DNA of 64,000 nucleotides from a virus, in IMG/VR virus record IMGVR_UViG_3300010354_015978, positions 46,676-110,675 of that record; one strand, given 5' to 3'. The notes beneath the pieces are model-generated. The model saw nothing but the letters and a program-made list of their open reading frames with translations, did no database searches and had not been told where the DNA came from. Position numbers and translations under genes: made by a program. This document shows, one piece after another, positions 3,392 through 46,727 of the stretch; within the stretch, counting starts at the first letter, position 1, and every line of letters begins with the position of its first letter.

Positions 3392-3742
3392 TCACTTGGT
3401 CCTGGGGTGCGCCATCATAAAGAAACTCAGTTCCTTGTCCGTGGCCACGTAGATGCGGCATTGATTGTTGATGCCGTTGGTCCAACTCCAGTGCGGATTG
3501 ATGACCAAGGGCATCTCCATTTCGTCCTTGAGCCAGTGATTGGTCTTGCTGACATACTCACGGATGTCGTCGTACTGGCGCACTTCGGCACTCCAGCCAT
3601 AGGTGTTGAAGAACCACATCTGCGCTTCGGCAAAGTGCAAAGGTCCGTAGCCGGTGTGCATGCGGTTGGAAAATGCAATCTGGTACTGAAACAATTTGTT
3701 GTACCGATACCGCCCATCTAGTTTGGTGACTTGGTAATTCAT
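3392..3742 (-). CDS. hypothetical protein
   Basis: 116 aa; ATGA coupling with the upstream ORF. Confidence 0.75.
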
Positions 3743-6405: not shown

Positions 6406-6430
6406 GTATAGATTTATCACCTAGTCAAGG

Positions 6431-6454
6431 CGAGACCCACCGAAGTGGGTCTCG
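6431..6454 (-). terminator. hairpin ending the tmRNA coding piece
   Basis: CGAGACCCAC-TTCG-GTGGGTCTCG. Confidence 0.7.
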
Positions 6455-6728
6455 GGAAGTTTCTGTTTCTCGGTATTCCTACCTCAGCAAGCCTCAAGCG
6501 GCCAGTGCGTATAGATCGTCGTTTGCGTCTATAAATTTGCTCGTTTAACGTCCGTCGCCTGACGTGCTGTCCACTCAGTTACTCTTTGCCCTGTCGAAAC
6601 CTTGACTGGCCCATCAAAAAACTTCTTAGCCGACCTTTCGGTATTCTACGGAAAGAAGCCTTTTGGTGGACCAGGTGGGAGTCGAACCCACGTCCAGAAC
6701 ACCTTTCTCATCGCTTCATACAGCAATA
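6455..6728 (-). ncRNA. ssrA: circularly permuted (two-piece) tmRNA, tag (A)ANDDLYALAA
   Basis: T-arm and acceptor 3' end GGACGTGGGTTCGACTCCCACCTGGTCCACCA (ends 6664) precede the 5' end GGGCCAGTCAAGGTTTCGAC (starts 6612); G3:U70; tag ORF 6526-6494. Outer ends approximate. Confidence 0.92.
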
Positions 6729-6729
6729 A

Positions 6730-7125
6730 TCAAAAATTTACCACGAACCTGCGACCACGATACTCAAACATCACGGTCTCGCCTACTTGTCGCTGCACGG
6801 GCACAGTGTTGCAGACCTGGCGCTGTTCCACATTGACCTGATCACGGCCGATGCGTTTGCCCACACCAGCACCCACAAGAGCACCCACCACAGTGGCTGC
6901 ATCACGACCACGACCGTCGCCCACTTGGTGACCGATGATACCGCCGGCCACGCCGCCGATCACGGTGCCCACGCCAGAATTGTCACGGGTGACATCTTCC
7001 ATGTAGCATTCTTGCTGATAGGCAGTGACCATGCGAGGACGACTCCAGACTACCTGGGCCACGTCTTCCGCTGCCATGGCAGCACCGCTGACTACAAATA
7101 GACCAATCGCAAACCACTTTTTCAT
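6730..7125 (-). CDS. secreted glycine-zipper 2TM domain protein
   Basis: signal peptide MKKWFAIGLF...AMA; GTVIGGVAGGIIGHQVGDGRGRDAATVVGALVGAGVG. Confidence 0.88.
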   Translation of the reverse strand: MKKWFAIGLFVVSGAAMAAEDVAQVVWSRPRMVTAYQQECYMEDVTRDNSGVGTVIGGVAGGIIGHQVGDGRGRDAATVVGALVGAGVGKRIGRDQVNVEQRQVCNTVPVQRQVGETVMFEYRGRRFVVNF

Positions 7126-8295: not shown

Positions 8296-8370
8296 TGGTA
8301 GGCGGTGAGGGGATCGAACCCCCGACCCTCTCCGTGTAAAGGAGACGCTCTACCTCTGAGCTAACCGCCT
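8296..8370 (-). tRNA. tRNA-Val(TAC)
   Basis: cloverleaf; loop TTTACAC; CCA encoded. Confidence 0.95.
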
Positions 8371-8373
8371 AAA

Positions 8374-8451
8374 TGGTCGGAATGGAGGGATTCGAACCCC
8401 CGACCCTCTGCTCCCAAAGCAGATGCGCTAGCCAGGCTGCGCTACATTCCG
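8374..8451 (-). tRNA. tRNA-Pro(TGG)
   Basis: cloverleaf; loop TTTGGGA; CCA. Confidence 0.95.
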
Positions 8452-8718
8452 GGAAGTGCTGTCAGTGGTAAGTGGGCTGCAACCACGAAACACATAGGCT
8501 TTGGCCGTGCGTAGTTCCATGAGGCTGAGCACACCGTCACTGTTCTTGTCGGCCTGGTCAAACAGGCTCTTGCTGATCTCGCAGTCCAGGCGCAGTTCTT
8601 CAAGACTGAGGCGACCGTCCAGATTCTGATCATAGAGATCTAATCTACGTTCGGTGGCCGACTGGGCCAAGGCCGACACGCTGGCAACGGCCATCAATGA
8701 CACGATTAACTTCTTCAT
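8428..8718 (-). CDS. secreted EF-hand protein
   Basis: signal peptide MKKLIVSL; EF-hands DQNLDGRLSLEE and DKNSDGVLSLME; 3' end overlaps tRNA-Pro. Confidence 0.85.
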   Translation of the reverse strand: MKKLIVSLMAVASVSALAQSATERRLDLYDQNLDGRLSLEELRLDCEISKSLFDQADKNSDGVLSLMELRTAKAYVFRGCSPLTTDSTSRNVAQPG

Positions 8719-8744
8719 ATTTGGTACTCCTATATAGACCAACT

Positions 8745-8818
8745 TGGCTGGGGTGCATGGGCTCGAACCACGATTAGCGGAATCAAAATCCGCTGTCCTA
8801 CCATTAGACGACACCCCA
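8745..8818 (-). tRNA. tRNA-Gln(TTG)
   Basis: cloverleaf; loop TTTTGAT; CCA. Confidence 0.95.
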
Positions 8819-8820
8819 AA

Positions 8821-9069
8821 TTAGTTTTCGAAACAGCGATAACCGGCCTGATGTTCGAAAGTCAACAGGCCAGCGCGAGGAGAACCTGGACGGGTACAAA
8901 TCCCCCAATCCGTGCCAAGATCCTTGCCCAGCGGGCGCCACCACCGACAGCCGCTGGAGCAGTCGGGGTAGTATTCTTCGGGATGGTCCCAACGTTCCAC
9001 TTCTCCACCGTAGTCACGATAGTCTGTGGGCAAACGCACCAGGATGTTCCAGTACCCTTTTTCACTCAT
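8821..9069 (-). CDS. small Cys-rich protein (DUF3027-like)
   Basis: DCSSGCRWW...DWGIC..P.SPRAG.LTFEH. Confidence 0.65.
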   Translation of the reverse strand: MSEKGYWNILVRLPTDYRDYGGEVERWDHPEEYYPDCSSGCRWWRPLGKDLGTDWGICTRPGSPRAGLLTFEHQAGYRCFEN

Positions 9070-9081
9070 GGGCGTAGTATA

Positions 9082-9516
9082 CTACACCACATATTCATAG
9101 TTAATGGTTTCTGGGTTGCTGCGGAACACCAAAGCACCATTTCGGAGATGGAACTTGCGCGCCATCTCGGTGGGTGGACTGAGAGTGACGAACCTAGTGA
9201 TCTCGGGGCGATGTTCGCGGATCCAATCGCGCGCCTGGAAAATGAGATCACGCCCGGCTCCGGGCTGATAACTCCATATTGTGTAGAAGATCGCGACCAA
9301 GGGATGATCGCAGTCCTGAAAGAGATCACGCTCGCTCTCGGGTATGGTGGCCTGATAACTCACACAGGTCACGGCCAGAGCACGGTCTTGGTCCCGGCTC
9401 ACAAACACATCGCGATTGGGACCTATGCGTGTCTGTTGTGGGATGCCGGGACGCACGGGATCTTCCTCTAGCAGTCGGAACAGGTCATCGGTGGTGTTGC
9501 GTATAAGATGGAGCAT
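9082..9516 (-). CDS. hypothetical protein, possible GNAT-like fold
   Basis: FYTIWSYQPGAG...MARKFHLRNG pattern. Confidence 0.65.
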   Translation of the reverse strand: MLHLIRNTTDDLFRLLEEDPVRPGIPQQTRIGPNRDVFVSRDQDRALAVTCVSYQATIPESERDLFQDCDHPLVAIFYTIWSYQPGAGRDLIFQARDWIREHRPEITRFVTLSPPTEMARKFHLRNGALVFRSNPETINYEYVV

Positions 9517-9556
9517 AATCAACGTATATATCTAAAAGATTAAAAAACAACTAGAA

Positions 9557-9633
9557 TGGCCCGGCCGGAGGGATTCGAACCCCCGACCGTGGGATTAGAA
9601 ATCCCATGCTCTATCCTACTGAGCTACGGCCGG
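9557..9633 (-). tRNA. tRNA-Arg(TCT)
   Basis: cloverleaf; loop TTTCTAA; CCA. Confidence 0.95.
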
Positions 9634-9636
9634 ACA

Positions 9637-9712
9637 TGGAGCGGGAGACGAGGCTTGAACTCGCGACATCCGGTTTGGAAGACCGGTGCTCTACCAACTG
9701 AGCTACTCCCGC
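9637..9712 (-). tRNA. tRNA-Gly(TCC)
   Basis: cloverleaf; loop CTTCCAA; U73; CCA. Confidence 0.95.
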
Positions 9713-9715
9713 GTA

Positions 9716-10186
9716 TTAGGCCACCATGGCGCGCTGCAAGCGATCAGCGGCGTAACTGGCCGCAAACGCATTGGGCTTGACCATGGGGATGACATTGCAG
9801 GTACCGCGTATGTAACCAATGGCCTGCTGTATCACGCAACTGCTGCCGTAGTGATCGTTGGGGTTGATGTCAAGATGCACTTCAACTTCACGATCAGCCA
9901 GCACCGGTGACAGTCTTTGATACATCTCACTGACACGATAAACTTCGTTCATGAGACGCATGCTGGGCCGGTCCACTCTCTGATCAAAGTCGCGCTCGCG
10001 CGAAACTTCGCCAAAAATTTTGCAACCGTTGTTGCCATTGACATGCACCACGATGGCCACGGTGTATTCCGCCCACCAGGTATGACGGAAACGATACCTG
10101 ACGCTATCAGCACCCAAGTACACCCTGGTGCCAGGTCCCTGTTGTTTAATGAAGTCCTGGACTTCTTGTAGGTTTATTTTTTGCAT
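9716..10186 (-). CDS. RNase H-like YkuK (DUF458) family protein
   Basis: YLGADS; RLMNEV; EVHLDIN; KPNAFAASYAADR. Confidence 0.85.
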   Translation of the reverse strand: MQKINLQEVQDFIKQQGPGTRVYLGADSVRYRFRHTWWAEYTVAIVVHVNGNNGCKIFGEVSRERDFDQRVDRPSMRLMNEVYRVSEMYQRLSPVLADREVEVHLDINPNDHYGSSCVIQQAIGYIRGTCNVIPMVKPNAFAASYAADRLQRAMVA

Positions 10187-10198
10187 AAGTCACTTGTT

Positions 10199-10780
10199 TT
10201 AATCCACGGTGTTGAGAGACGAGCTCTTGAACCCCACCATGCCGCCTTCCTGCTGGATGCGTTTGATGACATCTTCAAACAGTATGGGGCGATAGTCTGT
10301 GTGTTCCACGCACACACAATGATATCTAGTGTCAATCACCGGCTGGGCACCGGCATATTTGGCTCGCATCACGCGCCGGTAGTGCAGGTGACCGTGTATG
10401 TTACAGCCAAAGCGTCCCAGGCTTTCTTCATGCACCGGCACATGGCTCAATATCATGCCGTTCATGACATGGTAGCTGCGGATGTCGCGGAAGTGCGCAG
10501 CATAGTCATTGAGCTTGAAGATGTCATGGTTGCCCTTGATCAAGACCTTGTCGCCCTTGAGACGGCGCAGGATGTTGAGACTGCGTCGATTGATCACGAC
10601 ATCGCCGAGATGATACACTTTGTCATTGGGGCGCACGGTTTCGTTCCAACGCTGCACCATGGCTTCGTCCATTTCTTCAACGTCGTCCCAGGGGCGCAGT
10701 TTGCTACCGTCATCCCGGGTGAATCTGCAGACGCCGGTATGGCCAAAGTGAGTGTCACTGACCAGATATACCGCGGGCAT
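10199..10780 (-). CDS. calcineurin-like metallophosphoesterase
   Basis: SDTHFGH; HLGD; GNHD; HGHLH. Confidence 0.93.
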   Translation of the reverse strand: MPAVYLVSDTHFGHTGVCRFTRDDGSKLRPWDDVEEMDEAMVQRWNETVRPNDKVYHLGDVVINRRSLNILRRLKGDKVLIKGNHDIFKLNDYAAHFRDIRSYHVMNGMILSHVPVHEESLGRFGCNIHGHLHYRRVMRAKYAGAQPVIDTRYHCVCVEHTDYRPILFEDVIKRIQQEGGMVGFKSSSLNTVD

Positions 10781-10791
10781 GATAGTTCTCC

Positions 10792-11388
10792 TTATATGAG
10801 TTTGTGCGCAGCCACCATGAACCAGGCCGGGATGTTGTGCCCCGGCACTGGCATCTGTACGCTGCGAATGCTTTCTATGTCAAGATGTGGTTGCACAGCA
10901 TCCGCTATGTCAGCAAGACTGCGGTGACTGAGCTTGGGATCATCGCGGCGTCTTTGCTCGGTGCAGTCTACCACGCTGATGTATCTACCATGTGGTGCAA
11001 GATGCCGTGCTGCCGCGGCCACCAAGGCACTGCGGTCCTGACTGCGATTCAACACCACCATGACTCCGCGTTCAAACACCACGTCAAACTTGCCAAGATC
11101 CACACCGGGATCCAGTATGTCCGCATGTCGGAAATCTATGTTGGGCCAAGATGCACGACATTGTTGTATGATGTAATCGCTGATGTCCACGGCCACTACA
11201 TCATGTCCCTGTGATTCTAACCAGGCCGCATTGTAGCCTTGTCCGCAACCAATCTCCAGAACACGCAGGAAACGCTGTGGCTGCGATGAGAGCCATGCTT
11301 CTAGGTCAGCATCATGCACATGGTGCATCCATGCCGCTGACATCTGCTGCCACTGTTGATTCCAAAATTGTTGTAAAGGTTTGTCCAT
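10792..11388 (-). CDS. class I SAM-dependent methyltransferase
   Basis: VLEIGCGQG; VAVDIS; FDVVFE. Start uncertain. Confidence 0.9.
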   Translation of the reverse strand: MDKPLQQFWNQQWQQMSAAWMHHVHDADLEAWLSSQPQRFLRVLEIGCGQGYNAAWLESQGHDVVAVDISDYIIQQCRASWPNIDFRHADILDPGVDLGKFDVVFERGVMVVLNRSQDRSALVAAAARHLAPHGRYISVVDCTEQRRRDDPKLSHRSLADIADAVQPHLDIESIRSVQMPVPGHNIPAWFMVAAHKLI

Positions 11389-11597
11389 AGCAAAGGTCAC
11401 TGTCCTGTGTTTAAGAGCCAGGTGTGTTGGCCAGGGCTACCTGCCCTGCACCCAGCTCTCCTGATCATGCTTATTCCAGAAGCCATCCGGATACCACCCA
11501 ATTGGGTCGCAGTGGATCGTGGATCGGTTGCTCCCCTGACAGTTGGGGTATTGCTGGCGAAGCGGTCTTTCGCTCACGACCTTTGCTATGGTCACAC
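11385..11597 (-). ncRNA. candidate structured RNA closed by a 14-bp perfect stem
   Basis: CCATAGCAAAGGTC (11591-11578) pairs with GACCTTTGCTATGG (11398-11385); internal hairpins. Confidence 0.6.
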
Positions 11598-11608
11598 GTA
11601 ATTATAAC

Positions 11609-11700
11609 TGGTACCCCGGGCCGGAGTCGAACCGACATTGGCCAATTATCTGTTGCACACGGGATATAAATCCGCTGTTTTACCATTAAACTACCGGGGC
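11609..11700 (-). tRNA. atypical tRNA, anticodon TAT (Ile), 22-nt variable region
   Basis: GCCCCGG acceptor; D arm; loop TTTATAT; long V region; GGTTCGACTCC T-arm; ACCA. Confidence 0.85.
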
Positions 11701-11706
11701 ATGTCA

Positions 11707-11784
11707 TGGAGCATCGGGTGAGATTCGAACTCACGAATCGACGGCTTTGCAGGCCGCGCCATTGGACCACTCTGGTACCGATGC
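11707..11784 (-). tRNA. tRNA-Cys(GCA)
   Basis: loop CTGCAAA; U73; CCA. Confidence 0.92.
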
Positions 11785-11789
11785 ATGAT

Positions 11790-11864
11790 TGGAGCGGACG
11801 GAGGGATTCGAACCCTCGACATTCACGTTGGCAACGTGACATTCTACCACTGAATTACGCCCGC
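11790..11864 (-). tRNA. tRNA-Gly(GCC)
   Basis: loop TTGCCAA; CCA. Confidence 0.95.
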
Positions 11865-11865
11865 T

Positions 11866-11873
11866 TATAAATA
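11866..11873 (+). promoter_or_regulatory. T4-type late promoter TATAAATA
   Basis: exact TATAAATA 4 nt before ATG 11878. Confidence 0.7.
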
Positions 11874-11877
11874 TCCT

Positions 11878-12465
11878 ATGTTTCAATTCTTCACTAATGG
11901 TCGTTTGGCTTGGTTGCGTGTCCTGAAAAATGCCAGTTCTAGTTATGCTCGTGTGTTCGAAGATCTGGACTGGGAATTACACGATCTCTACAAAACCAAA
12001 ATTGATACTGACTCTCTGACTTGGTTTGGTCTACTACGCGATCCCAATGTAAGACACAGCATGGGCATCGTGCAGTATCTCATGGAGCAAAGCCTTCAGG
12101 CCTGTCTAGATGAACCACTGTGTCATCCCTTGCTGACATCGGCCTGCTTGGATGCACATAGCATGCCCATCACGGCCCAGATACCCGAAAGCATCGTGCA
12201 TCGGGCACACTGGTTTGTGCTGGACCATCCTACGTACGATCATGAGCGACTGTTGAGAAATTTTCTAAGAACTCACAAATTTGAACTGCCACCGGTGCCA
12301 CGCATACACGAAAGTACCGCGGAAAAACGACAAATGCAGCAGCGCATCGAAGATCTCAAAAAAGCCAATACCATGGCCTGGTACAAACTACAGATGGTGT
12401 TGGGTGCAGATCTCAAGCTCTATCGACACAGACTGCAGATGCAGCATCTATACGATACGCCATGA
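11878..12465 (+). CDS. sulfotransferase-like protein
   Basis: 5'-PSB-like RVLKNASSS and 3'-PB-like LLRDPNVR.S. Confidence 0.65.
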   Translation: MFQFFTNGRLAWLRVLKNASSSYARVFEDLDWELHDLYKTKIDTDSLTWFGLLRDPNVRHSMGIVQYLMEQSLQACLDEPLCHPLLTSACLDAHSMPITAQIPESIVHRAHWFVLDHPTYDHERLLRNFLRTHKFELPPVPRIHESTAEKRQMQQRIEDLKKANTMAWYKLQMVLGADLKLYRHRLQMQHLYDTP

Positions 12466-12467
12466 AC

Positions 12468-12559
12468 TGGCGGTGAGTGTTGGATTCGAACCAACGGACC
12501 CGGTTGCCCAGATCGACAGGTTAGCAACCTGCTGCTTTCGACCACTCAGCCAACTCACC
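12468..12559 (-). tRNA. tRNA-Ser(GCT)
   Basis: loop TTGCTAA; long V arm; G73; CCA. Confidence 0.95.
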
Positions 12560-12561
12560 TT

Positions 12562-12666
12562 TTATTCGTCTTTGTTGCGCCACGGCCACCACATGTAAGC
12601 GGTACAGGCCGCTGCGGCGATTGTAAATGCCAAGATACCAACGATGTTTGCTGCTATGAATTCCAC
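12562..12666 (-). CDS. 34-aa single-TM peptide MEFIAANIVGILAFTIAAAACTAYMWWPWRNKDE
   Basis: GTG start; hydrophobic segment plus charged tail; fills the inter-tRNA gap. Confidence 0.5.
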   Translation of the reverse strand: MEFIAANIVGILAFTIAAAACTAYMWWPWRNKDE

Positions 12667-12687
12667 TGTTCTACTCTCTCTGTTGTA

Positions 12688-12762
12688 TGGTGCCGGCGGA
12701 GAGATTTGAACTCCCGACCAACGGTTTACAAAACCGCTGCACTACCACTGTGCTACGCCGGC
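12688..12762 (-). tRNA. tRNA-Thr(TGT)
   Basis: loop TTTGTAA; CCA. Confidence 0.95.
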
Positions 12763-12809
12763 GCGATTTGATTATTATATAGCAAGGCATATGGCCTTGC
12801 AATGCTATC

Positions 12810-12902
12810 TGGCGGAAAAGGTGAGACTCGAACTCACACACTCCTGTCGGAGCCTTCGGTTTTCAAGACCGCTGCCGCTAGTCCAACTCGGCTAACTTTT
12901 CC
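12810..12902 (-). tRNA. tRNA-Ser(TGA)
   Basis: loop CTTGAAA; long V arm; G73; CCA. Confidence 0.93.
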
Positions 12903-13009
12903 AAGATCCGGTTACCCAGTCCGGAGCAGGCGTTAGGTCCCTGCGGCGCCTCAGTTCACCCATCCCGATGCCATGCCAAGCAGAGAGCCAGCCGGACGTT
13001 CGCTGTGTA

Positions 13010-13084
13010 TGGTGCTGATGAGTGGGATCGAACCACCGGCTTCCTCCTTACCAAGGAGGTACTCTACCACTGAGTTACATCAGC
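13010..13084 (-). tRNA. tRNA-Thr(GGT)
   Basis: loop TTGGTAA; CCA. Confidence 0.95.
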
Positions 13085-14639
13085 GTTGTTGTCTTGCCTG
13101 TTGCCAGACTATGTCTTTGTATTGCCTGGCCATGCGCCACTTGCGACGCACGATGTCGTCCCAGGGCAGTTGATCATAAGGAACACGGAACTGCTGTAGG
13201 TCATCGTAGCCCAGGCCCATGAATGTCCAGACCTGGTTGCTGGTGGGTCTGCGCACCACGCCAAAGTTGGCTTTGTCGCTGAGTTCACAGGCGCGGTAAA
13301 AGTCCATGTGATCGTTTTCCCAGTACAGCACGTTGGGATTGTCCTCGCAGGGACGGATGTTGCGATAGCCGTACTTTTCGGGATTGAGCTCTATCTTGCT
13401 GGGATAGAGATTGTATCCACGGTAGAGGTAGAACGCCGGCATGGCATAACTGTCCAAGGGGTTTTCGCTGCTGCGCAACCACTCTATGGTCTGTTCTAGG
13501 CTTTCCTGTGTCTCGTGTGGCAGGCCTGCTATGAGACTGGCACTGAGCATGGTCTTGGGCCAGCGATGCCGGAGTTCTTGCAGTCCCGCCGTGATGCGTT
13601 CGCGATCGGCACTCTTGCCAATGGCGCTGCCGGTGCGTTTGTTGAGGCTCTCGATACCAAAGTGCGTGGCTCTGCATCCGCTTTCGTAGATCATGTCCAT
13701 CTGATCACGGTGTGCCACGATGAGGTCCAGTCTTAGATAGGCCCAGTACTCCAGCTCAAATGGCAGCGCACGACTGAGATCCAACATGTACTGCACCTTC
13801 TCTCGGCTGTCGTTGAAGGTGTCATCCAAGAGATAGTATCGCGTGATGCCATAGCGTTCGTAGTTTTCCACCATCTCGCGATACAAGAGATCGTGTCGCT
13901 TGATGTAGTCCAGTTTGTTCTTGCCATTGAGCGGATAACTGCAAAATGCGCAGTGGAAGATGCATCCACGCGACACTTCTATGGGCAGGCTTTCGCCGGG
14001 CAAGACACCATCATAGGGCCGGTAACTCATGGTGGAGTTCACAAAGTCATATGACTCGGCCCGGCGATCATCTATGATGGTCGGACCCCAGATGCTGCGC
14101 TGCCGTTTGGGCAGCCTGATGCCTTGGCTGAGGTGTTGTGCCAGCCATACTATGCTGAGGTCAGCGTAGCCTGGTATCACGTAGTCATAATCGCGATTGA
14201 AATCGCTGTCGTGTGCCAGGGGACCGCCCAACACAAACTTGACTCTGGGATTGATACCATGTACATGGGCTTTGAGCTGTTGGTTGTATTGATGTCCGTG
14301 TGGCAGCATGGCGCCGTTCATGCGGCTCATGCTGTGGCTCAACACCATGTCGCGATCTCGGGGCTCTGCGATGCTGTAGTCAAACTGCCGTATCTCGCGG
14401 TAAAACATGGGATTGAACCCAATGAACAAGGTCTGGTCGCTGACCAGTCCCGACAGGATGTCAAAGATTTCCTCGGGAGCGAACACATGAGCGTGGTGCA
14501 GCACGAACACTTCAAACCCAGCCTGCCGGAGCTCATAGGCCACTTTGTAGGGCCCGTAACTCTTGGTCAGTCCGTATGTTTCAGTGATGTCCGAGATGAA
14601 AATTACGTTGGGGCGACTGTTGTCGAACCATTCGTTCAT
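13080..14639 (-). CDS. B12-binding-type radical SAM protein
   Basis: EVSRGCIFHCAFC; DDTFN; FGIES; IAGLPHET. Confidence 0.9.
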   Translation of the reverse strand: MNEWFDNSRPNVIFISDITETYGLTKSYGPYKVAYELRQAGFEVFVLHHAHVFAPEEIFDILSGLVSDQTLFIGFNPMFYREIRQFDYSIAEPRDRDMVLSHSMSRMNGAMLPHGHQYNQQLKAHVHGINPRVKFVLGGPLAHDSDFNRDYDYVIPGYADLSIVWLAQHLSQGIRLPKRQRSIWGPTIIDDRRAESYDFVNSTMSYRPYDGVLPGESLPIEVSRGCIFHCAFCSYPLNGKNKLDYIKRHDLLYREMVENYERYGITRYYLLDDTFNDSREKVQYMLDLSRALPFELEYWAYLRLDLIVAHRDQMDMIYESGCRATHFGIESLNKRTGSAIGKSADRERITAGLQELRHRWPKTMLSASLIAGLPHETQESLEQTIEWLRSSENPLDSYAMPAFYLYRGYNLYPSKIELNPEKYGYRNIRPCEDNPNVLYWENDHMDFYRACELSDKANFGVVRRPTSNQVWTFMGLGYDDLQQFRVPYDQLPWDDIVRRKWRMARQYKDIVWQQARQQR

Positions 14640-14655
14640 GTCATTATATATGCAT

Positions 14656-14733
14656 TGGTGGTGATGGGTGGGATCGAACCACCGACCTTGGGGTTATGAA
14701 TCCCACGCTCTGACCGGACTGAGCTACATCACC
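14656..14733 (-). tRNA. tRNA-Met(CAT) (elongator-type; Ile2 not excluded)
   Basis: loop TTCATAA; paired 1:72; CCA. Confidence 0.9.
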
Positions 14734-14738
14734 GGAAG

Positions 14739-14814
14739 TGGTACGGGCAGAGGGATTCGAACCCACGACCAACAGATTAAAAGTCTGCTGCTCTACCGAC
14801 TGAGCTATGCCCGC
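14739..14814 (-). tRNA. tRNA-Lys(TTT)
   Basis: loop CTTTTAA; CCA. Confidence 0.95.
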
Positions 14815-14815
14815 A

Positions 14816-14878
14816 TCAAAGACGTCGCATCACGATGAACAACATCACGAAAATTACCAAGATGACAAAGGCAGCCAT
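14816..14878 (-). CDS. 20-aa hydrophobic peptide MAAFVILVIFVMLFIVMRRL
   Basis: AGGAG RBS; fills the gap between two tRNAs. Confidence 0.55.
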   Translation of the reverse strand: MAAFVILVIFVMLFIVMRRL

Positions 14879-14893
14879 GATGTTCTCCTAGAT

Positions 14894-14969
14894 TGGTGCC
14901 TGGTGCTGGATTCGAACCAGCGACCCGCGCCTTATCAAGACGCTGCTCTACCAACTGAGCTAACCGGGC
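14894..14969 (-). tRNA. tRNA-Ile(GAT)
   Basis: loop TTGATAA; CCA. Confidence 0.95.
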
Positions 14970-14970
14970 A

Positions 14971-15047
14971 TGGGGTGACTGGTGGGAATCGAACCCACGA
15001 ATGTCGGGATCACAACCCGAGGCCTTGACCGCTTGGCTACAGCCACC
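14971..15047 (-). tRNA. tRNA-His(GTG)
   Basis: loop TTGTGAT; G-1:C73; CCA. Confidence 0.95.
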
Positions 15048-15054
15048 ATGGACA

Positions 15055-15131
15055 TGGTCTCTGTGACAGGATTTGAACCTGCGACCCCTTGCACCCCATG
15101 CAAGTGCGCTACCAGTCTGCGCCACACAGAG
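15055..15131 (-). tRNA. tRNA-Pro(GGG)
   Basis: loop ATGGGGT; C1:G72; CCA. Confidence 0.95.
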
Positions 15132-15275
15132 AAAAAAGAAATAGTAGGGGTTGAAGAAATCTGGTTCGTCTCTGGCACCTCGAGTATGCCTTGACCCTTG
15201 ATACTCCCATCGCTGTGCGACAAACCTTACACCAGAAGGTAGGGCGGGAAATTCTATTTATAACTGACAATAAAA

Positions 15276-15352
15276 TGGTGCCCCAGAGGAGACTCGAACT
15301 CCTAAAATTTGGCTTCTAAGACCAACACGTATACCAATTCCGTCACCGGGGC
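15276..15352 (-). tRNA. tRNA-Leu(TAG) with short variable loop
   Basis: Leu-type D arm GACGGAATTGGTATAC; loop CTTAGAA; 77 nt; A73. Confidence 0.9.
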
Positions 15353-15362
15353 GATATCAAAA

Positions 15363-15437
15363 TGGTGGAGGATGAGAGAATCGAACTCTCAACTCTGCGA
15401 TGCAAACGCAGCGTGTTCCCATTAGCACTAATCCCCC
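15363..15437 (-). tRNA. tRNA-Ala(TGC)
   Basis: loop TTTGCAT; G3:U70; CCA. Confidence 0.95.
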
Positions 15438-15441
15438 AAAC

Positions 15442-15518
15442 TGGCGACCCGTACCGGACTTGAACCGGTGGCCTCATGCGTGACAGGCATGCGATCTAAC
15501 CAACTGATCTAACGGGCC
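15442..15518 (-). tRNA. tRNA-Asp(GTC)
   Basis: loop CTGTCAC; G73; CCA. Confidence 0.95.
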
Positions 15519-15532
15519 AAATAAATATCTAC

Positions 15533-15709
15533 ATGGAAGTCGCAAAACTGCTGCCTGAGTACGTGCCTTTGATTGATACGCAGACGGCACGGGCAACCAA
15601 TACCGCTGTCAGCACAGCCGCTAGTCTACTGGTCATGACGCCGCAAGAAATACAACAAAATCTCGAGCGTTGGCGCGAGCACAATGAACGCATCCATGTA
15701 GTGGTGTAA
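15533..15709 (+). CDS. 58-aa hypothetical protein MEVAKLLPEYVPLID... (not in ORF track)
   Basis: open frame preceded by ATAAATA late-promoter motif. Confidence 0.55.
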   Translation: MEVAKLLPEYVPLIDTQTARATNTAVSTAASLLVMTPQEIQQNLERWREHNERIHVVV

Positions 15710-15915
15710 GGCGTGGGCTATCGTTCGCGTATTGGCCGCTACTAGATTGTTGTCAGCCATACCCCCACGCAGCATGGCCTAGTCCGTTACACCTCATGTA
15801 CAGTCGCGTGATACCCGAACGGACAATCTCTCTCACGCCTGCGATGTTGCGTCATGCCCGCTGTAAAAAAATAAGGCGGGGAGCCTCCGGTGATAGCCCT
15901 CCCATAACATCGTAA
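15709..15915 (-). ncRNA. candidate structured RNA(s): two consecutive closed domains
   Basis: AGGCGTG/CACGCCT and CGATGTT/AACATCG closing stems; inner GTCCGTT/AACGGAC. Confidence 0.5.
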
Positions 15916-15931
15916 GGTAGGAAGGCATTGT

Positions 15932-16006
<75 letters not shown>

Positions 16007-16011
16007 AAATG

Positions 16012-16086
16012 TGGTGAACCCAAGGGAATTCGAATCCCTATTCTCACCGTGAAAGGGTGATGTCCTAACCGTTAGACGATGGGTCC
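16012..16086 (-). tRNA. tRNA-Glu(TTC)
   Basis: loop CTTTCAC; CCA. Confidence 0.95.
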
Positions 16087-16095
16087 ATGATTGAA

Positions 16096-16275
16096 TTTGC
16101 TGACGGCCCAGCGCCACATCCATCGCTGGCATTTGACCTGTAAAACAAGACCGGTCAGGTGTGTGGTACGCAGTGCCAGCAGATACTTGGGAGCCTCTCT
16201 CACGTTCAGACCTCGCTGTACCCTCTCTCGCCATGTGCCCATGGCGGATTTCTCTGCATCTGCACCGTCAACAAA
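16096..16275 (-). ncRNA. candidate ~180-nt multi-branched RNA
   Basis: TTTGTTGACGG/CCGTCAGCAAA closing stem; CGCCATG/CATGGCG; GCTGGCA/TGCCAGC; TGACC/GGTCA. Confidence 0.6.
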
Positions 16276-16278
16276 ACT

Positions 16279-16364
16279 TGGTGGGAAAGGAAGGATTCGA
16301 ACCTACTCAGCCTATGGCGCCAGATTTACAGTCTGGTGTGACTCTCCAACTTCACCGCTTGCCC
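16279..16364 (-). tRNA. tRNA-Tyr(GTA)
   Basis: loop CTGTAAA; V arm; CCA. Confidence 0.95.
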
Positions 16365-16368
16365 TTAA

Positions 16369-16466
16369 TTACTATATTGAAGCACTCTCTGTTATTTTTC
16401 GCAGAACTCACCTAAGAGTCGCCATCCAAACACTGTAATACAGTTGAGAGTGCTTCAATATAGTAA
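16369..16466 (-). repeat. 21-bp perfect inverted repeat hairpin (ATATTGAAGC family), copy A
   Basis: ttactatattgaagcactctc ... gagagtgcttcaatatagtaa. Confidence 0.9.
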
Positions 16467-16800
16467 GGTGCTTCCCCCTGCTGGCGGTAATTATAGCGCA
16501 TCAAGCATTGGGCTCTTCCTTACGGGTCCCAATACCATCACACACGCCTTCCACCCGCTTCCCAACACAGGGAGATTCTCGCATTGCCAGCGCCCTTCTC
16601 TGCCTAAGGGTAAGGTCCTGTGAGTCATGGTCTCACTTCTCATCGTGCGGACGCACACTATCCGATTATGAGTCGGAACGTTGGGATCACCGTTATGGAC
16701 AGCAATCTCCCTGCTGCCGTTTGCGCTCTAGGACTTGTCCGGAATTTCGTCTCTTCGAGCACACTGGGCTGGTTATGGTGGTCACAGCCATTTTCCGGTG
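16467..16800 (-). ncRNA. candidate ~330-nt ornate structured RNA (GOLLD-like?)
   Basis: at least 8 stems, a 10-bp long-range pairing and an isolated CAT anticodon-like arm; no credible ORF. Confidence 0.65.
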
Positions 16801-16805
16801 AATAC

Positions 16806-16881
<76 letters not shown>

Positions 16882-16889
16882 ATGAATTT

Positions 16890-16960
16890 CCATATTGAAG
16901 CACACTCACGGCTCTAAACCGCTGAACAATACTGTGCTGATAGAATGCGCTTCAATATGG
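16890..16960 (-). repeat. ATATTGAAGC-family hairpin, copy B
   Basis: CCATATTGAAGCGCATTC/GAGTGTGCTTCAATATGG, 18 bp with 2 G:U pairs on the minus strand. Confidence 0.85.
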
Positions 16961-17135
16961 CACCACAAAACACATGATACAGGATCACGATTTTGTGGTC
17001 AACCATATGGCAGGGTCATGCCCTGCCCAGGAGTCTTACCAGCCGCGTTGCCGCCACGGCCTTCATGTATCCTGTCCGCCCGTTCGACCCATTTGTTGTA
17101 CGCCGGTCCCACCCTCGTTGCGGTATGGCGTATTA
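16961..17135 (-). ncRNA. candidate pseudoknotted RNA at the 5' end of the tRNA array
   Basis: TACGCC/GGCGTA, GGCAGGG/CCCTGCC and ACCACAAAA/TTTTGTGGT hairpins; loop ATCCTGT complementary to upstream ACAGGAT. Confidence 0.55.
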
Positions 17136-17199: not shown

Positions 17200-17228
17200 A
17201 AAAACCCTGAGTCTTTCGATCTCAGGGT
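17200..17228 (-). terminator. intrinsic terminator (attenuator)
   Basis: ACCCTGAGATC-GAAA-GACTCAGGGT-TTTT. Confidence 0.85.
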
Positions 17229-17259
17229 CCGGTGTAGTCTTGGTGCTTTGGCACTGTGT

Positions 17260-17385
17260 CTACCTGGACCCTCTCCGATCGCTGTTTTCAATCGATACAG
17301 TGAGGCCCTTGCCTGTGGCAAACCAATAGGTTTGCATCACCGGGGTCTGGTGTATCGTTGATGATTTCAAACAGGAATTCTTCAT
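17260..17385 (-). CDS. putative 41-aa leader peptide MKNSCLKSSTIHQTPVMQTYWFATGKGLTVSIENSDRRGSR
   Basis: starts at the predicted +1 of promoter P1; last codons are complementary to the terminator 5' arm. Confidence 0.7.
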   Translation of the reverse strand: MKNSCLKSSTIHQTPVMQTYWFATGKGLTVSIENSDRRGSR

Positions 17386-17395
17386 CACAGGTCCT

Positions 17396-17424
17396 AGTAT
17401 ATGCTCTTATATATGCCTTGTCAA
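17396..17424 (-). promoter_or_regulatory. sigma70 promoter P1 of the tRNA array
   Basis: TTGACA-17-TATACT. Confidence 0.85.
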
Positions 17425-17478
17425 GAACAATCTGGCAAAATAGGCGTTGTTTTTACGCAACAGCCTTTTCCAGCAAGA

Positions 17479-17859
17479 TCACGCTGGGGGAGTTGGCCAA
17501 ATCACATCGGCAGCATTGGCGTAGTTCTGGGGCAAGTCGCGCAGCAGTTGACGATACGCTGCCCACTCAGCTCGCATGGTCTCGGCGCGATCCATGAGTT
17601 GTGTGTGATCGCACTCACGCAGCAATCGATTGCGTTGGGCACGTACCAGTTCCCATGTGGCAGGTGCACTCACTGGCGCCTTGTCCACCAGTGTAAGTTC
17701 TCCGTGTACCACGAGAATTTCTTTGCCGTTGCTGTTGATCTCACGTATCAGTCTGGCATGGTCAACAGCATTGACCTCAATCATGTCATCGGGCAGAGAA
17801 GGATACCGGAATCTGCTGTCGTAAAAACGTCGAGTGCTGGGACTGTAAAGTATGGCCAT
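17479..17859 (-). CDS. tail fibre assembly chaperone
   Basis: YSPSTRRFY; RAQRNRLLRECDHTQLMD; WAAYRQLLRDLPQ; WPTPP; follows the fibre gene. Confidence 0.9.
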   Translation of the reverse strand: MAILYSPSTRRFYDSRFRYPSLPDDMIEVNAVDHARLIREINSNGKEILVVHGELTLVDKAPVSAPATWELVRAQRNRLLRECDHTQLMDRAETMRAEWAAYRQLLRDLPQNYANAADVIWPTPPA

Positions 17860-17860
17860 G

Positions 17861-20800
17861 TCAGTATCCTACCGCGATATAAAACAGTTGTGTGGGCACC
17901 GTGGCCTGACTCTGAGATCTTTGCGACCACCAGGTAAAGGTGGCAGTGTCCAAAGCATAAACCATGGGCCAGTAGTCGTAATTGGAACCAAAAGCATTGT
18001 AGGTCATTGATATGCTCATGCAGGCTGTGGGAAATGCCACAGGGAAAGCCGCAGTGGGCAACTGACCTTCTGTCCAGTTGGCAAACCCACGGTCGATGCG
18101 ACCCCACTGCACGATGATGCTGCGCCCGGTAACAGGATCAGCATCAAACACCATCCATCCAGTGAGTGTGTCGATGGATATGTTTTGAGACACTTGGGTG
18201 CCTGGAGTACCAGCAGGCCCTTGTGGACCAGTTGCGCCGTTGGTGCCATTGTTGCCCGGAGGCCCTTGTACGCCTTGGACACCTTGTGGACCTTGTGGAC
18301 CCTGTGGGCCCGGTACACCGGCCAAGTTCACGGTCCAGGATGTAAATGATCCAGACCCCTGGGTGCTGGTTACATTGATGATCATCTGACCGCTGCCGCT
18401 GTTGTAGGTTTGGATGGTGCCTACCATGTAGCGATTTGCATCGTAGGCCACGATCACAGTCTGTCCAGGTGAGTAGGCCAGTGCAGTGGCAGCAAACAGA
18501 CTCTGGATGCCAGTGGTGATGCTCAGCGCTGTGGTACTGGTGGTGCTGTAGCGATCGCCAGGCAAACCTTGTGGACCTTGGGGACCCGTGATTGATGCAC
18601 CAGCCGGGCCTGGAGGACCCGCAGGGCCCGCAGCACCAGCCGGGCCAGCGGGACCTTGTGGTCCCTGTGGACCAGGGGCGCCTTGTGCGCCAGTGGCACC
18701 AGGGGGGCCAGCGGGACCGGGAACACCAGCAAGGTTTAGGCTCCAGGTATTGAAGGTGCCCGAGCCTTGTGTGGCAGTGACATTGATGGTGATGCTGCCA
18801 GTGTTGGTATTGTAGGTTTGCACCGTACCCACCATGTATCGCGTGGCATCTGCGGCCACGATAACAGTCTGACCCGGCGTGTAGGCCAGGCCTTGCCCTG
18901 GCAGGAAGGTTTTGAGTCCAGTGCCAATAGTGGTGCTGGAGCCTTCTGAGAACGTTTTGGAATATCTATCGCCCGCGGGACCTGGAAGTCCTTGTGCGCC
19001 GGCAGGACCGGCAGGACCGGCAGGACCAGCAGCACCTTGTGGACCTGGTGTTCCGGCCGGGCCCGGAGGACCAGCCGGTCCGGTAGAACCAGCAGGACCC
19101 GTGATACCTTGTGGTCCAGGAGGACCAGCAGGACCGGCAGGACCCTGTGGACCCGTGGCACCCTGTGGACCCGTGGCACCTGTGGCTCCGGCAGGGCCGG
19201 CAGGGCCAGTAGCACCGGCAGGACCTTGCGGACCCTGTGGGCCCGGAGCACCTGTGGCGCCTGCAAGGTTCACAGTCCAAGAGGTGTAGGTACCAGAACC
19301 GGTCTGCGATGTTACTACAAAAATCAGTTGTCCGTTGTTGACGTTGTAAGACGACACAGTGCCCTGCATGAAGTTGCCGCCATTGGCTGCAACCAGGATA
19401 CTCTGTCCAGCACTATAGGCCAAGCCTGCCTGCACTGTAATGGTGTAGGTTCCGGATCCTATAGAGAAGGTATTGCTGCTGGTGGTGCTGTATCGATCAC
19501 CCTGTGGTCCCTGTGGGCCCTGTGGTCCTTGGGCTCCGGCGGGACCTTGAGGACCTTGAGCTCCAGTGGGACCAGTTGGACCAATTGGGCCTTGCGGACC
19601 CACAGGACCTGTCGGACCTGCGGGACCTTGGGCGCCTACTGCACCTGCCAGGCTGATGGCCCATTGTGCGTAACTGCCACCGCCCTGGATCGAGGTCACG
19701 TTGACAATACAGGCACCTGTGGTGGCATTGTAACTCTGTATCACGCCGTTCATGAGATTTTCAGAGTTGACTGACACGATCACGCTCTGGCCAGGTTGAT
19801 AGGCCAGGCTGGGACCAATATTGAAATTCTTCACGCCCACGCTGAGTGGTGTCAGTGTAGAAGTGAAACTTGAACTGTAGCGATCACCGGGCGCACCAGC
19901 AGGACCTGCAGGGCCAGTTGCACCTGCAGCACCGGCAGGACCAGCGGGACCTTGTGGTCCTTGCGGTCCCGGCAATCCTGTTGTGGGGCCAGGTGGTCCG
20001 CGTTCACCCTGTGGTCCCTGTGGACCTGTGGCACCTTGCTGTCCAGGTTGTCCTTGTGGACCAGTGGCACCTTGTGGACCTTGCGCACCCGCAGTGCCCT
20101 GTGGACCCACGAGACCACTGAGGTTGATCACCCAGTCGGCATAGGTTCCCGATCCTACTACACTCAGCACGTTGACCAAGAGCTGACCGCTGTTGCGATT
20201 GTAGGATATCACACGTCCTTCCATGTAGGTAGACGCGGTGTTGGTCATGATTATGGGCTGCGCCGGTGTCAGCGCCAAGCCAGTGTCCGTGGTAAAGAAA
20301 ACTTCGCCCAGGCGCATGGTCACGGCGGTGGTGCTGAGACCAAAGTATCTGTCGCCGCGCTGGCCGTCGGCTCCCGCGGGTCCTTGTGGACCAATGGGTC
20401 CTTGTGGTCCCGGCGGGCCCTGTTGGATGGTCGCGCTGATAGTGGCCAAGACACCGTTGCGCTCCACGGTGATAAAGTCACCGCCCTGGATGTCTACGAT
20501 GCCGGTGTTTTCAATAAAGGTCTGACCAAGATAGGTGGTGGCATTGATGCCAGTACCACCGGTCACTGTGAGCACACCGGTGTTGTTGACCGTGATGTTG
20601 CCCTGTGTCTGTATGGGACCGCCCTGCACTGATATGCCAGGACCTGCAGTGATACCAATCTCGCTCACACCCGACGTGGGCACCACGATGTCGCTGGTGC
20701 CATCAAACAGGATACCGTTGATGAGCCGGCCCGGCGATAGTTTGCTGGCGCTGCTGGCCAGGCCCTTGAATTCTATCGTGGGCAGCAAATTGATGCCCAC

Positions 20801-21508
20801 CACCAGGGTCTCAAAGCCCGCAGGACGATCTGCTGGCAGTATGGTAAAGGCATCTTTGCTGATGATGGCCAGAGCCGTGCCATCCACATAGGCCACAATC
20901 ACAGCATGTTCGTCAAAGTTAGTGTCGCGCATCATCTCGCTGCTCCAGCGAGTGATGGCAAAGTTGGAAACGTTTTCGGGACCCACGAAATACCAGGCAT
21001 TGTCGCGATATACGAACAGTTGATCGCTGGTATTGTCAAAGTACATCTGTCCCTGCAGGGCGTTGTCAGGCGGGGTAGCAGTGACCTGTATGAGATTGAC
21101 CGGAGCCCATCCGCCCACGATGGTGTCATTACGTATGGTCAGGAACTGTGTGGCGGGATTGTACCAAAGGTCGCCGTTGTTGAGGCTGGTAGTGGGCTCG
21201 TCAACATCAAAGTACACAGTGTAGATGGGCTTCCAAGATCCCTGCTCGGGCAGTATGGTGGGATCACCCTGCCAGGCATACATCTTGTCGTTGGACGTGT
21301 TCCACCACAACTGTCCCTCGATGGGGTTGGGCGGTGGGCTGTCATCAGCGAAATTCTCCAACTGATGCACTAGATTCTCTACTTCGTATTCGCCGTAGGG
21401 AGTGACGTTGCGTCCCACCAGTGTTTGACTGGTAGCGGTTGTATTGATAGTGCCGTCTTCTACGACTGCAATCACCTGTCCACGACTGTTGTTTACGATA
21501 TACGCCAT
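17861..21508 (-). CDS. collagen-like tail fibre protein
   Basis: myovirus fibre N-terminus (LENFA..PP.NP.EGQLWW); G-X-Y tracts alternating with five GDRY(S/F) modules; C-terminal IVQWG...FPVAFPTAC tip. Confidence 0.9.
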
Positions 21509-21574: not shown

Positions 21575-22447
21575 CTATTTTGTGGCTGCCGAGATGCTTT
21601 CGTAGGATTTTTTCAGTTTACTGTCAAAATACTGTCTGGCATTGACAGCGGGGTATTTGTTTATGCCCACTAGACTATCTATCATGATTTCCGCACGGGG
21701 ATGGATAAAATACGGAAAACTCAGGCGTGATCTATCCAGGGCCGCGTTGGTCACTCGATGGCGTGTGCTGACATAGACATCGTTGGTCCAGCGTTGCAGT
21801 AGATCGCCCACGTTGACCAGGCACGCACCGGGCATGTAGGGCGCTGTGATCCAGTTGCCCTGCCGGGTCTTGACTTCTAGTCCCGGCACATCGTTCTGCC
21901 ACAACAGGGTCAACGTGCCGATGTCGGTGTGTTCACCGCCGCGTGTCTGTCCTGGCAATACAGCGTCCTGCCAGCGGGGATAGTGTATCCAGCGAAGGGT
22001 GCTGGTAGTGCTGTTGGTGTGCTGGCTGATCAAGAAACCCAGGGGTAGATCCAGGGCTTCTTCCAGCAGGGACAGCATGATGATCATGCTGTCCCGGCAA
22101 CTTTGCGTCCAAGCATAGGCTGCTTGTTGATGATAGGCAGTGGGCCAAATCTTGTCATGCGGCCTACCAGGTCCCCAGGTCATGGCCTCGTGTAGATCAA
22201 ACGGAGTGCCAGGGCGGAAACTTTCCAGGAATCTCTCAAACCCTGTGTTGGTGTGGAGATCATAGGGTGCTGCCTGCGTGAGCAGGGATTCGGGCAGCGC
22301 GAACAGGGATTCAGCAGCGGCCAGGGCGCGTTCAAAAGGTCCACCACTGGTGGGCAGGCCCTTGACATAGGCAAACCCAACAGTGGTGAAGGCTTGGTGT
22401 AGAGCTCGGGCGCAGCCTGGCTGATCGATATCTACACAGGGTATCAT
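21575..22447 (-). CDS. isopenicillin N synthase-family 2OG-Fe(II) dioxygenase
   Basis: HTD.G.LTLL; NVGDLLQRWTND; HRV; R.S. Confidence 0.92.
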   Translation of the reverse strand: MIPCVDIDQPGCARALHQAFTTVGFAYVKGLPTSGGPFERALAAAESLFALPESLLTQAAPYDLHTNTGFERFLESFRPGTPFDLHEAMTWGPGRPHDKIWPTAYHQQAAYAWTQSCRDSMIIMLSLLEEALDLPLGFLISQHTNSTTSTLRWIHYPRWQDAVLPGQTRGGEHTDIGTLTLLWQNDVPGLEVKTRQGNWITAPYMPGACLVNVGDLLQRWTNDVYVSTRHRVTNAALDRSRLSFPYFIHPRAEIMIDSLVGINKYPAVNARQYFDSKLKKSYESISAATK

Positions 22448-46521: not shown

Positions 46522-46727
46522 GTATTGAAGTACCATATGATCCCGAAAAGCATCATGAATGCACAGGTCACGGCCAGCTCGCCCAACAACGATATGCGTT
46601 GTTTTTGTTGTGGACATCCGCCCTGCTGGTAATCGCAGAACTGTATGGGTCGGCCTAGATCGTCTAATTGACGATTACATCCTTCCACTGGACATCGATC
46701 CGGGGTTGATTTTGTTCTCTGGAACAT
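46518..46727 (-). CDS. small Cys-rich membrane-anchored protein
   Basis: CPVEGC...CDYQQGGCP plus C-terminal TM. Confidence 0.6.
   Translation of the reverse strand: MFQRTKSTPDRCPVEGCNRQLDDLGRPIQFCDYQQGGCPQQKQRISLLGELAVTCAFMMLFGIIWYFNT

Follow-up and report, generated by a model that had tools for sequence, protein, structure and literature searches.

A leader unit ahead of a phage tRNA array

The DNA analysed here, called the window throughout, is a stretch of 64,000 nucleotides from a virus (IMG/VR record IMGVR_UViG_3300010354_015978, positions 46,676 to 110,675 of that record). Its minus strand carries a small unit consisting of a promoter, a leader open reading frame (ORF) and an intrinsic terminator, which lies upstream of a large array of tRNA genes. 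An earlier reading made from the letters of the window alone (the sequence-only reading) had proposed that this unit is a ribosome-sensing attenuator of the array, with a leader that samples nearly all codons. The observations presented below favour a transcription attenuator of the leader-peptide type, the leader of which appears to be built to need almost every amino acid.

The near-consensus promoter that had been claimed, P1 (17396-17424; TTGACA-17-TATACT, 11 of 12 positions matched), is the best promoter-like site between 6000 and 22000. It is followed by the leader ORF of 41 codons plus stop (17260-17385), in which a recount found all 20 amino acids and 35 different codons, as stated before. 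The ATG is situated 10 nt past the -10 box, and because an in-frame GTG at 17388 lies only 7 nt past that box, the ORF is leaderless or nearly so. The terminator (17200-17228) has an 8-bp stem, a 1-nt bulge, two more pairs, a GAAA tetraloop and a run of five Ts, and is in effect a bulged 10-bp stem; of the 12 hairpins with a T-run listed for the minus strand between 6000 and 18000, it is the strongest, and the sole one outside a gene or tRNA. A search for further attenuator units in the array and the rest of the 110-kb contig gave no other terminator-like hairpin outside a gene or tRNA, and one model match.

The RNA from 17389 to 17195 folds at -68.7 kcal/mol, compared with -47.8 +/- 4.4 for shuffled sequences (z = -4.8). 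The sequence-only reading held that the end of the ORF pairs with a segment overlapping the 5' arm of the terminator, and this pairing is indeed present in the predicted structure. In the nascent-RNA fold, the last seven codons and the stop (17260-17281) form the 5' arm of an antiterminator; its 3' arm (17217-17237), seen both in the fold and by covariation, overlaps the 5' arm and the upper stem of the terminator. A long predicted hairpin inside the ORF surrounds its single Trp codon (17288-17361) and is observed again in the folds of relatives; possibly it serves as a pause or synchronising hairpin for the RNA polymerase. Rfam, the T-box models included, yielded no match over 17200-17395 at gathering score or at an E-value up to 5, and the one hit nearby, mir-1270 over 17419-17488, is at chance level (23 bits against a gathering score of 90).

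Past the terminator, on the same strand, lie the 24 tRNA genes (16881-8296) and the tmRNA gene (6756-6403), in accordance with the array claimed earlier. The second promoter that the sequence-only reading had raised as a caveat is real as well: P2 (17148-17176, 10 of 12 positions) follows the terminator directly, a further promoter, P3 (16974-17002, also 10 of 12), is found besides, and both are located between the terminator and tRNA-Trp. P2, as judged from its sequence, would drive transcription that does not depend on the attenuator.

The family of homologous units

Homologues were sought with exact and degenerate patterns taken from the terminator hairpin only, in IMG/VR, in JGI/ENA metagenomes and in the GTDB species genomes. 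Once duplicates and chance matches had been removed, 24 further distinct units were left, bringing the family to 25 with the window unit; outside the hairpin their DNA is too diverged for reliable alignment. A 15-base loop pattern matched at least 119 loci, nearly all of them chance matches inside genes, and contributed L097 as the only new unit (labels of this form denote loci and contigs). Nine matches came from the genome collection, of which five lay in coding sequence and were due to chance, one followed a gene in a metagenome-assembled genome (MAG) of Alistipes, two were plain terminators after tRNA genes of Bacteroidota, and one was a unit of the Betaproteobacteria.

Two sets of candidates were rejected. 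L135 and L149, on gut contigs resembling Alistipes, were excluded because the hairpin follows an ordinary gene, and the AT-rich bidirectional terminators L008-L014, which have the same stem, reached only weak scores with the model and were kept out of the family. In the Bacteroidota MAGs L169, L170 and L158, the same bulged hairpin with its GAAA tetraloop (core GAGATCGAAAGACTC) and T-run is the terminator directly after tRNA genes, which could reflect convergence on a very stable hairpin or shared descent.

All 25 units contain an ORF starting with ATG, 20-46 codons long (38-46 in every phage unit but one), the stop of which lies 23-37 nt before the terminator arm, and 22 of them have an upstream TTGACA -35 box with a spacer of 17-18 nt. 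Two classes of start signals can be discerned. In the first (the window, L002, L006, L097, L150, L155 and L159), the start codon lies 6-11 nt past the -10 box and a Shine-Dalgarno motif (SD) is absent, except for an AGGA in the window unit; in the second, which comprises the L003 and L132 groups, the start codon is preceded by 35-39 nt of leader with a suitably spaced GAGG or AAGG that resembles a Shine-Dalgarno motif. The other two frames contain 0-5 stops. The two classes of start signals, together with the stops in the other frames, argue for a translated frame. The position, length and start signals of the ORF are thus kept across the 25 units, and conservation of the leader among relatives, which had been proposed as a check, comes out in favour of the proposal.

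The same holds for the mutually exclusive helices. In each of the 25 units, the nascent RNA, when folded to the 3' arm of the terminator, pairs the terminator 5' arm with a segment located 3-28 nt before the stop, within roughly the last nine codons. The sequences of the arms vary by lineage, and a changed terminator 5' arm is accompanied by matching changes in both its antiterminator and its terminator partner, a three-way covariation. Since MAFFT by itself failed to bring the antiterminator arms into register, an alignment built with the covariance model R1 was used (A4). In A4, 73% of the antiterminator cells are paired, against 61% in shuffles, and 16 of the 24 pairs have changed on both sides; the covariation score is 0.294, compared with 0.143 for shuffled alignments, and none of 500 shuffles scored as high. 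The terminator is paired in 99% of the cells, with three compensatory pairs, and slid controls gave much lower values. Covariation of the two helices, another check that had been called for, is therefore observed. The paired fraction is lowered by the GC-rich bacterial group, in which the antiterminator spans the whole terminator arm and which A4 forces into a wrong register.

In an equilibrium model in which the 29 nt under the ribosome are blocked, applied to 11 units, the predicted free energy of forming the terminator is -10 to -15 kcal/mol once the A-site has reached the last 7-14 codons or the stop. A ribosome farther upstream, or no ribosome at all, mostly gives values of about +2 to -6, with some positions as low as -9. 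The modelled profiles of all 11 units show a step, of about 6-14 kcal/mol; for the window unit, the values are -10 to -12 kcal/mol with the ribosome on the last codons and -0.8 without it. According to this step, complete translation would favour termination, while stalled or absent translation would favour read-through.

The composition of the leader was compared with that of other stretches of 41 codons. Among comparable stretches, taken as windows of real genes, stop-free windows and shuffles of the ORF, 0.6-1.5% contain all 20 residues and 0-1.4% at least 35 different codons. As this is only mildly unusual, and small ORFs are found by the hundreds in the window, the case rests on the relatives. 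Their peptides fall into 11 lineages. Peptides of different lineages are on average 22% identical, compared with 15% after shuffling, and eight of these lineages contain all 20 amino acids in 38-46 residues, the others 16-20. Under a null that draws residues independently from the proteins encoded on these contigs, the probability of a complete set is 0.006-0.03 in each case, and the completeness of whole ORFs, combined by Fisher's method over 12 representatives, gives P = 8e-10. The homologues had been ascertained by their terminator, so this completeness is not a selection artefact, and the identity between the peptides is so low that inheritance cannot explain the retained set.

The excess is located in the part of the leader where a stall could be reported. 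When the ORFs were split at the point where the ribosome footprint (A-site plus 12 nt) starts to cover the antiterminator arm, the codons upstream of the arm were found to hold 17-20 kinds of amino acid in 30-36 codons in most representatives (Fisher P = 3e-8), and the tail, the codons over the arm, made no significant contribution to completeness. Codon usage shows a different pattern. Given the peptide, synonymous-codon diversity is as expected in nine of ten units (P = 0.18-0.77; the window, at P = 0.025, is the tenth). Matching of the leader codons to the phage's own tRNAs was considered and rejected, as 83% are matched, no better than the 76 +/- 8% of ordinary phage genes. The 'all-codon' sampling of the sequence-only reading is not borne out by these results, since the excess lies in amino acids: what stands of a leader sampling the decoding pool is the complete or nearly complete amino-acid set that is kept, and what falls is the part concerning codon diversity and tRNA matching. 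The design would be pan-amino-acid and not all-codon.

Downstream genes and genomic setting

In every phage contig with enough flanking sequence (the window, L002, L003/L005, L007, L097 and L150), tRNA genes are found on the same strand 0.2-1.1 kb downstream of the unit. In L002, L003 and L150, the leader promoter is the only strong sigma-70-type promoter ahead of these tRNAs, with 12 of 12 positions matched in L002 and two promoters in tandem in L003; promoters past the unit, comparable to P2, are present in L155 and L015. A gene of 52-54 residues with its own SD starts some 20 nt past the T-run in L002, L150 and L097, leaving no room for a promoter. In L002 and L097 this gene occupies positions 2826-2984 and 3500-3664, respectively, and no counterpart was noticed in the window. 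PHROGs contains no family for the leader peptide, nor for this small gene of L002 and L097. The downstream genes would depend on read-through in L002, L003, L150 and the bacterial units ahead of rtcB, and not in the window, where P2 and P3 intervene.

Between the unit and the tRNAs of the window lies a conserved structured RNA motif (17026-17081, minus strand) with two helices of 13 pairs, nine of them compensatory, to which Rfam has no match. The motif, which starts with GGGCGGAC and has a GCGAUAA loop, is seen in most phage relatives 57-244 nt past the T-run, as in L002 (3047-3096), L003 (3545-3601), L097 (3726-3782) and L146 (2856-2912).

The GC-rich units belong to the Betaproteobacteria bacterium GR16-43 (CP019169.1) and to contigs from soil and rhizosphere. 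Here a promoter is followed by an ORF of 31-45 codons with 16-20 kinds of amino acid, then by the antiterminator/terminator and a boxA-like element, and finally by rtcB and tRNA genes or by tRNA genes alone. RtcB is an RNA ligase associated with tRNA repair, so its association with the cassette is an independent link to decoding trouble, and the presumed link of the unit to tRNA supply is strengthened by these bacterial homologues ahead of rtcB and tRNA genes. Sampling 81 genomes of this betaproteobacterial order revealed one further rtcB with a homologous unit (L183), two with an ORF of 9-10 codons and a terminator directly upstream, and several in the classical sigma-54/RtcR arrangement.

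Within a single betaproteobacterial order, rtcB thus occurs with two regulatory styles, a sigma-54/RtcR promoter or a unit of leader ORF and terminator, the latter either homologous to the phage unit or with an ORF of 9-10 codons (loci compared: L157:1224-2749, L161, L134, L174, which is GR16-43, L183, L202 and L187). Some of these leader units are followed by the boxA-like element GCTCTTTAACAA and tRNA genes. Near the window unit no boxA-like element was found, and the 110-kb contig, estimated to be 32% of the genome, encodes no RtcB.

The other genes around the window unit all lie on the minus strand. Upstream of it are a tail-fibre assembly chaperone (17859-17479), a collagen-repeat tail fibre of 1215 residues with seven collagen-repeat stretches and a gp53-like C-terminus (17861-21508) and, upstream of the latter, a 2OG-Fe(II) oxygenase gene (21575-22447). 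The 24 tRNA genes of the array downstream (8296-16881) serve 19 amino acids, Phe not among them. The array also includes a gene for a radical-SAM protein of 519 residues between tRNA-Met and tRNA-Thr (13080-14639) and, between tRNA-Leu and tRNA-Pro, a COG2908 RNA motif (Rfam RF02939, 15205-15249; 67 bits, above the gathering score). Long hairpins with perfect stems are located just 5' of tRNA-Tyr (16369-16466) and tRNA-Trp (16888-16962), with only chance-level matches to miRNA precursors in the Rfam E-value scan.

The tmRNA (6403-6756) scores 154 bits with the betaproteobacterial model and 140 bits with the model for permuted tmRNA, and its type hints at a betaproteobacterial host; the tRNA array of L002 likewise includes a tmRNA. 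The length of the complete record, 110,675 bases at an estimated completeness of 32%, suggests that the source virus is a giant phage. No close relatives, by DNA or protein, were found in the GenBank phage collection, where tRNA-Trp gave the only match and the tail fibre distant N-terminal ones, and a search of IMG/VR for related loci through the tail-fibre chaperone protein found none.

Interpretation and relation to known systems

Several lines of evidence point in the same direction. A leader ORF with start signals, an intrinsic terminator, a mutually exclusive antiterminator and an ORF end placed over the 5' arm of the latter are all found in silico. I consider it probable, with a confidence of roughly 60%, that the unit is a ribosome-mediated transcription attenuator whose leader is built to need almost every amino acid, a reading that draws on sequence comparison and on modelled folding. 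I infer that the leader is translated, that its translation is coupled to transcription, and that the unit responds to it. In such a mechanism the RNA polymerase would start at P1, and a ribosome would start on the leaderless or nearly leaderless ORF and trail the polymerase. With smooth decoding, the ribosome on the last 7-9 codons or the stop would cover the 5' arm of the antiterminator, upon which the terminator would form and transcription would end at 17200. A ribosome held at an earlier codon, or one that never loaded, would instead leave the antiterminator free to sequester the terminator 5' arm, and the polymerase would continue into the conserved RNA motif and the array of tRNAs and tmRNA.

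As 17-20 of the 20 amino acids are represented in the sensing part, transcription of the tRNAs would rise when nearly any charged tRNA ran short or when translation was blocked in general, and would drop again after decoding recovers. Judged by the sequences and the model, the output of tRNAs, and in bacteria of the RNA-repair ligase, probably rises when ribosomes decode slowly. In relatives the attenuator would be the only route to the tRNA genes, to the small downstream gene or, in the Betaproteobacteria, to rtcB and tRNAs. In the window its output would add to that of P2 and P3, and as these promoters lie past the terminator, the unit can only add to basal expression of the tRNAs; it probably modulates the array rather than gating it. 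The proposal of an attenuator thus stands with respect to its anatomy, the conserved ORF, the covarying helices and the amino-acid set, and fails in the 'gating' of the array, since P2 and P3 bypass the terminator.

A number of observations weigh against this interpretation. The alignment behind the covariation was fitted to the structure by the covariance model and is biased in favour of that structure. Even without a ribosome, equilibrium folding still slightly favours the terminator in several units (-0.8 to -7 kcal/mol), so the switch would depend on kinetics beyond the equilibrium model. The window leader lacks the enrichment of particular codons that marks leader-peptide attenuators; amino acids mostly occur once each, without the codon runs that give classical attenuators their sensitivity, and partial starvation may be poorly sensed. 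Single codons would be weak sensors of partial starvation, yet a ribosome would stall totally on them if a tRNA species were destroyed. Neither synonymous diversity nor tRNA matching points to design in the choice of codons.

Moreover, a stall in the last 7-13 codons could not be reported, as these overlap the antiterminator arm; in the window, this tail is the only place with codons for Asp and Arg, and by the footprint rule for Glu, and stalls there would favour termination. The bacterial homologues are less complete in their kinds of amino acid, L183 being ordinary with 16 kinds in 41 codons. Finally, with P2 and P3 following the terminator, read-through in the window may alter tRNA output only modestly.

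Alternatively, the same anatomy could serve as a general speedometer of translation, which reports ribosome availability, stress from antibiotics or on elongation factors, or lost coupling, in the manner of the toiL and PA5471.1 leaders, with an even composition that merely avoids dependence on any single amino acid. This would fit with an antiterminator that is favoured by an absent and a stalled ribosome alike, with the untuned codons and missing codon runs, with bacterial homologues that retain the structure at 16-19 kinds of amino acid, and with the short leaders of 9-10 codons ahead of other rtcB genes in the same order. However, a speedometer needs a composition that is unbiased, not one that is complete, and it is in completeness that the enrichment is found, in eight of 11 lineages with 38-46 residues, each at 0.6-3% by chance. 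I regard this explanation as unlikely, though not negligible.

It is rather improbable that the unit is a free-standing small gene of promoter, ORF and terminator, whose product is the peptide of 38-46 residues and whose hairpin overlapping the stop only stabilises the 3' end. The promoters past the terminator in the window, L155 and L015 would agree with it, as would the recurring residues, a single central Trp after Thr or Ser and an Asp-Arg near the end. However, these Asp-Arg codons fall on the RNA segment that pairs, the peptides resemble each other little more than they would after shuffling (22% against 15%) and lack a PHROGs family, and in L002, L150 and L097 the next gene follows too closely for a promoter to fit. 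In addition, a gene of this kind has no role for the covarying overlap of two mutually exclusive helices, and leaves unexplained why so short a peptide should need all 20 amino acids.

Less probable still is an untranslated structured RNA of about 190 nt, ended by its own terminator. The very stable fold (z = -4.8) and the covarying helices would be expected of it, and a terminated transcript would be a discrete RNA, but one frame is open in 25 units of 11 lineages with stops in the other frames, and the start codon is always found at the transcription start or behind a Shine-Dalgarno-like motif. Completeness in amino acids would be meaningless in a non-coding RNA, and Rfam offers no match. 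That the ORF arose by chance, with a promoter of the ordinary kind on one side and the terminator that ends the upstream tail-fibre operon on the other, can practically be dismissed. About one in 100 ORFs of 41 codons would contain all 20 amino acids, and the window has hundreds of small ORFs, but 24 units that were found independently of the ORF share it together with its position and composition, which makes this a family.

The attenuator reading can be taken one step further, to a tentative idea that I hold possible though short of probable: the cassette may be a dedicated sensor for the loss of any tRNA, common to Betaproteobacteria and their giant phages, which would switch on RtcB and spare tRNAs in the bacterium and replacement tRNAs in the phage when anticodon nucleases or other tRNA-depleting defences act. 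If true, this would be a cis-acting trigger of counter-defence, in which a single test message of 40 codons keeps watch on all 20 decoding channels.

There is debate about the reason for the nearly complete tRNA sets of large phages (codon bias, shut-off of the host or escape from tRNA-cleaving defences), and next to nothing is known about how phage tRNA arrays are regulated. With a leader that needs every amino acid before transcription terminates, the supply of tRNAs would be coupled to decoding capacity by a simple feedback. Attenuation would then extend from one amino acid to all, and from operons of enzymes to genes for tRNAs and RNA repair, and the bacterial units ahead of rtcB would offer a way to control RNA repair without a regulator, as an alternative to the known one through RtcR and sigma-54. 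A cassette of 230 bp would allow a direct test in a reporter fusion. A search of the full-text literature gave no description of a pan-amino-acid leader, of attenuated phage tRNA arrays, or of such a leader ahead of rtcB.

Related principles are known from other systems. The nearest published biology is that of Anabaena sp. PCC 7120, where translational stress leads to loss of the TrcR repressor and thereby to joint induction of rtcB and the trn array of tRNAs (PMC8421152, PMC10272220), so that, similar to what is proposed here, a supernumerary tRNA array and RtcB are turned on when translation is impaired. The difference is that a protein repressor acts at the promoter, and the words 'attenuat', 'leader' and 'terminator' are all absent from the text of the paper. 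T-box riboswitches are, like the unit, cis-acting leaders that read the charging of tRNA and choose between terminator and antiterminator, but they do so by direct binding of one specific uncharged tRNA and need no ribosome. The polycysteine leaderless short ORFs of mycobacteria are reported to act as attenuators (bioRxiv 10.1101/834739); they are located at the 5' end of the transcript and let the progress of the ribosome control an operon, and they differ in being specific for Cys alone and in belonging to a different phylum.

Two kinds of systems are nearest in mechanism. The first comprises toiL (topAI-yjhQ of E. coli, PMC12121999), PA5471.1 (armZ of Pseudomonas aeruginosa) and the leaders of vmlR and msrD, upstream ORFs that signal when ribosomes are in general difficulty and activate the genes behind them by relief of premature termination, as proposed for the unit. 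In contrast to it, they sense antibiotic-stalled ribosomes at particular codons, toiL by way of Rho, and none is reported with a complete set of amino acids or with tRNA genes as its target.

The second is attenuation of the trp/his type, in which a ribosome reaching the leader stop masks the antiterminator and brings about termination, and stalling results in read-through. The classical attenuators (trpL, hisL, pheL and leuL, and the multivalent thrL and ilvL) resemble the unit in that a short leader ORF is combined with an intrinsic terminator and an antiterminator, the two helices having one strand in common, and in both the position of the ribosome would select the helix, with full translation leading to termination and stalling to read-through. 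Unlike them, the unit has no runs of regulatory codons, as its 17-20 different amino acids mostly occur once each, and no helix of the 1:2 type that enforces termination when translation is absent; its genes are tRNAs or rtcB instead of biosynthetic enzymes, and several of its members are leaderless. By in silico evidence from sequence and modelling, the unit is best read as a variation on a known mechanism of attenuation, and the point of difference is a complete or nearly complete set of amino acids in place of enriched codons.

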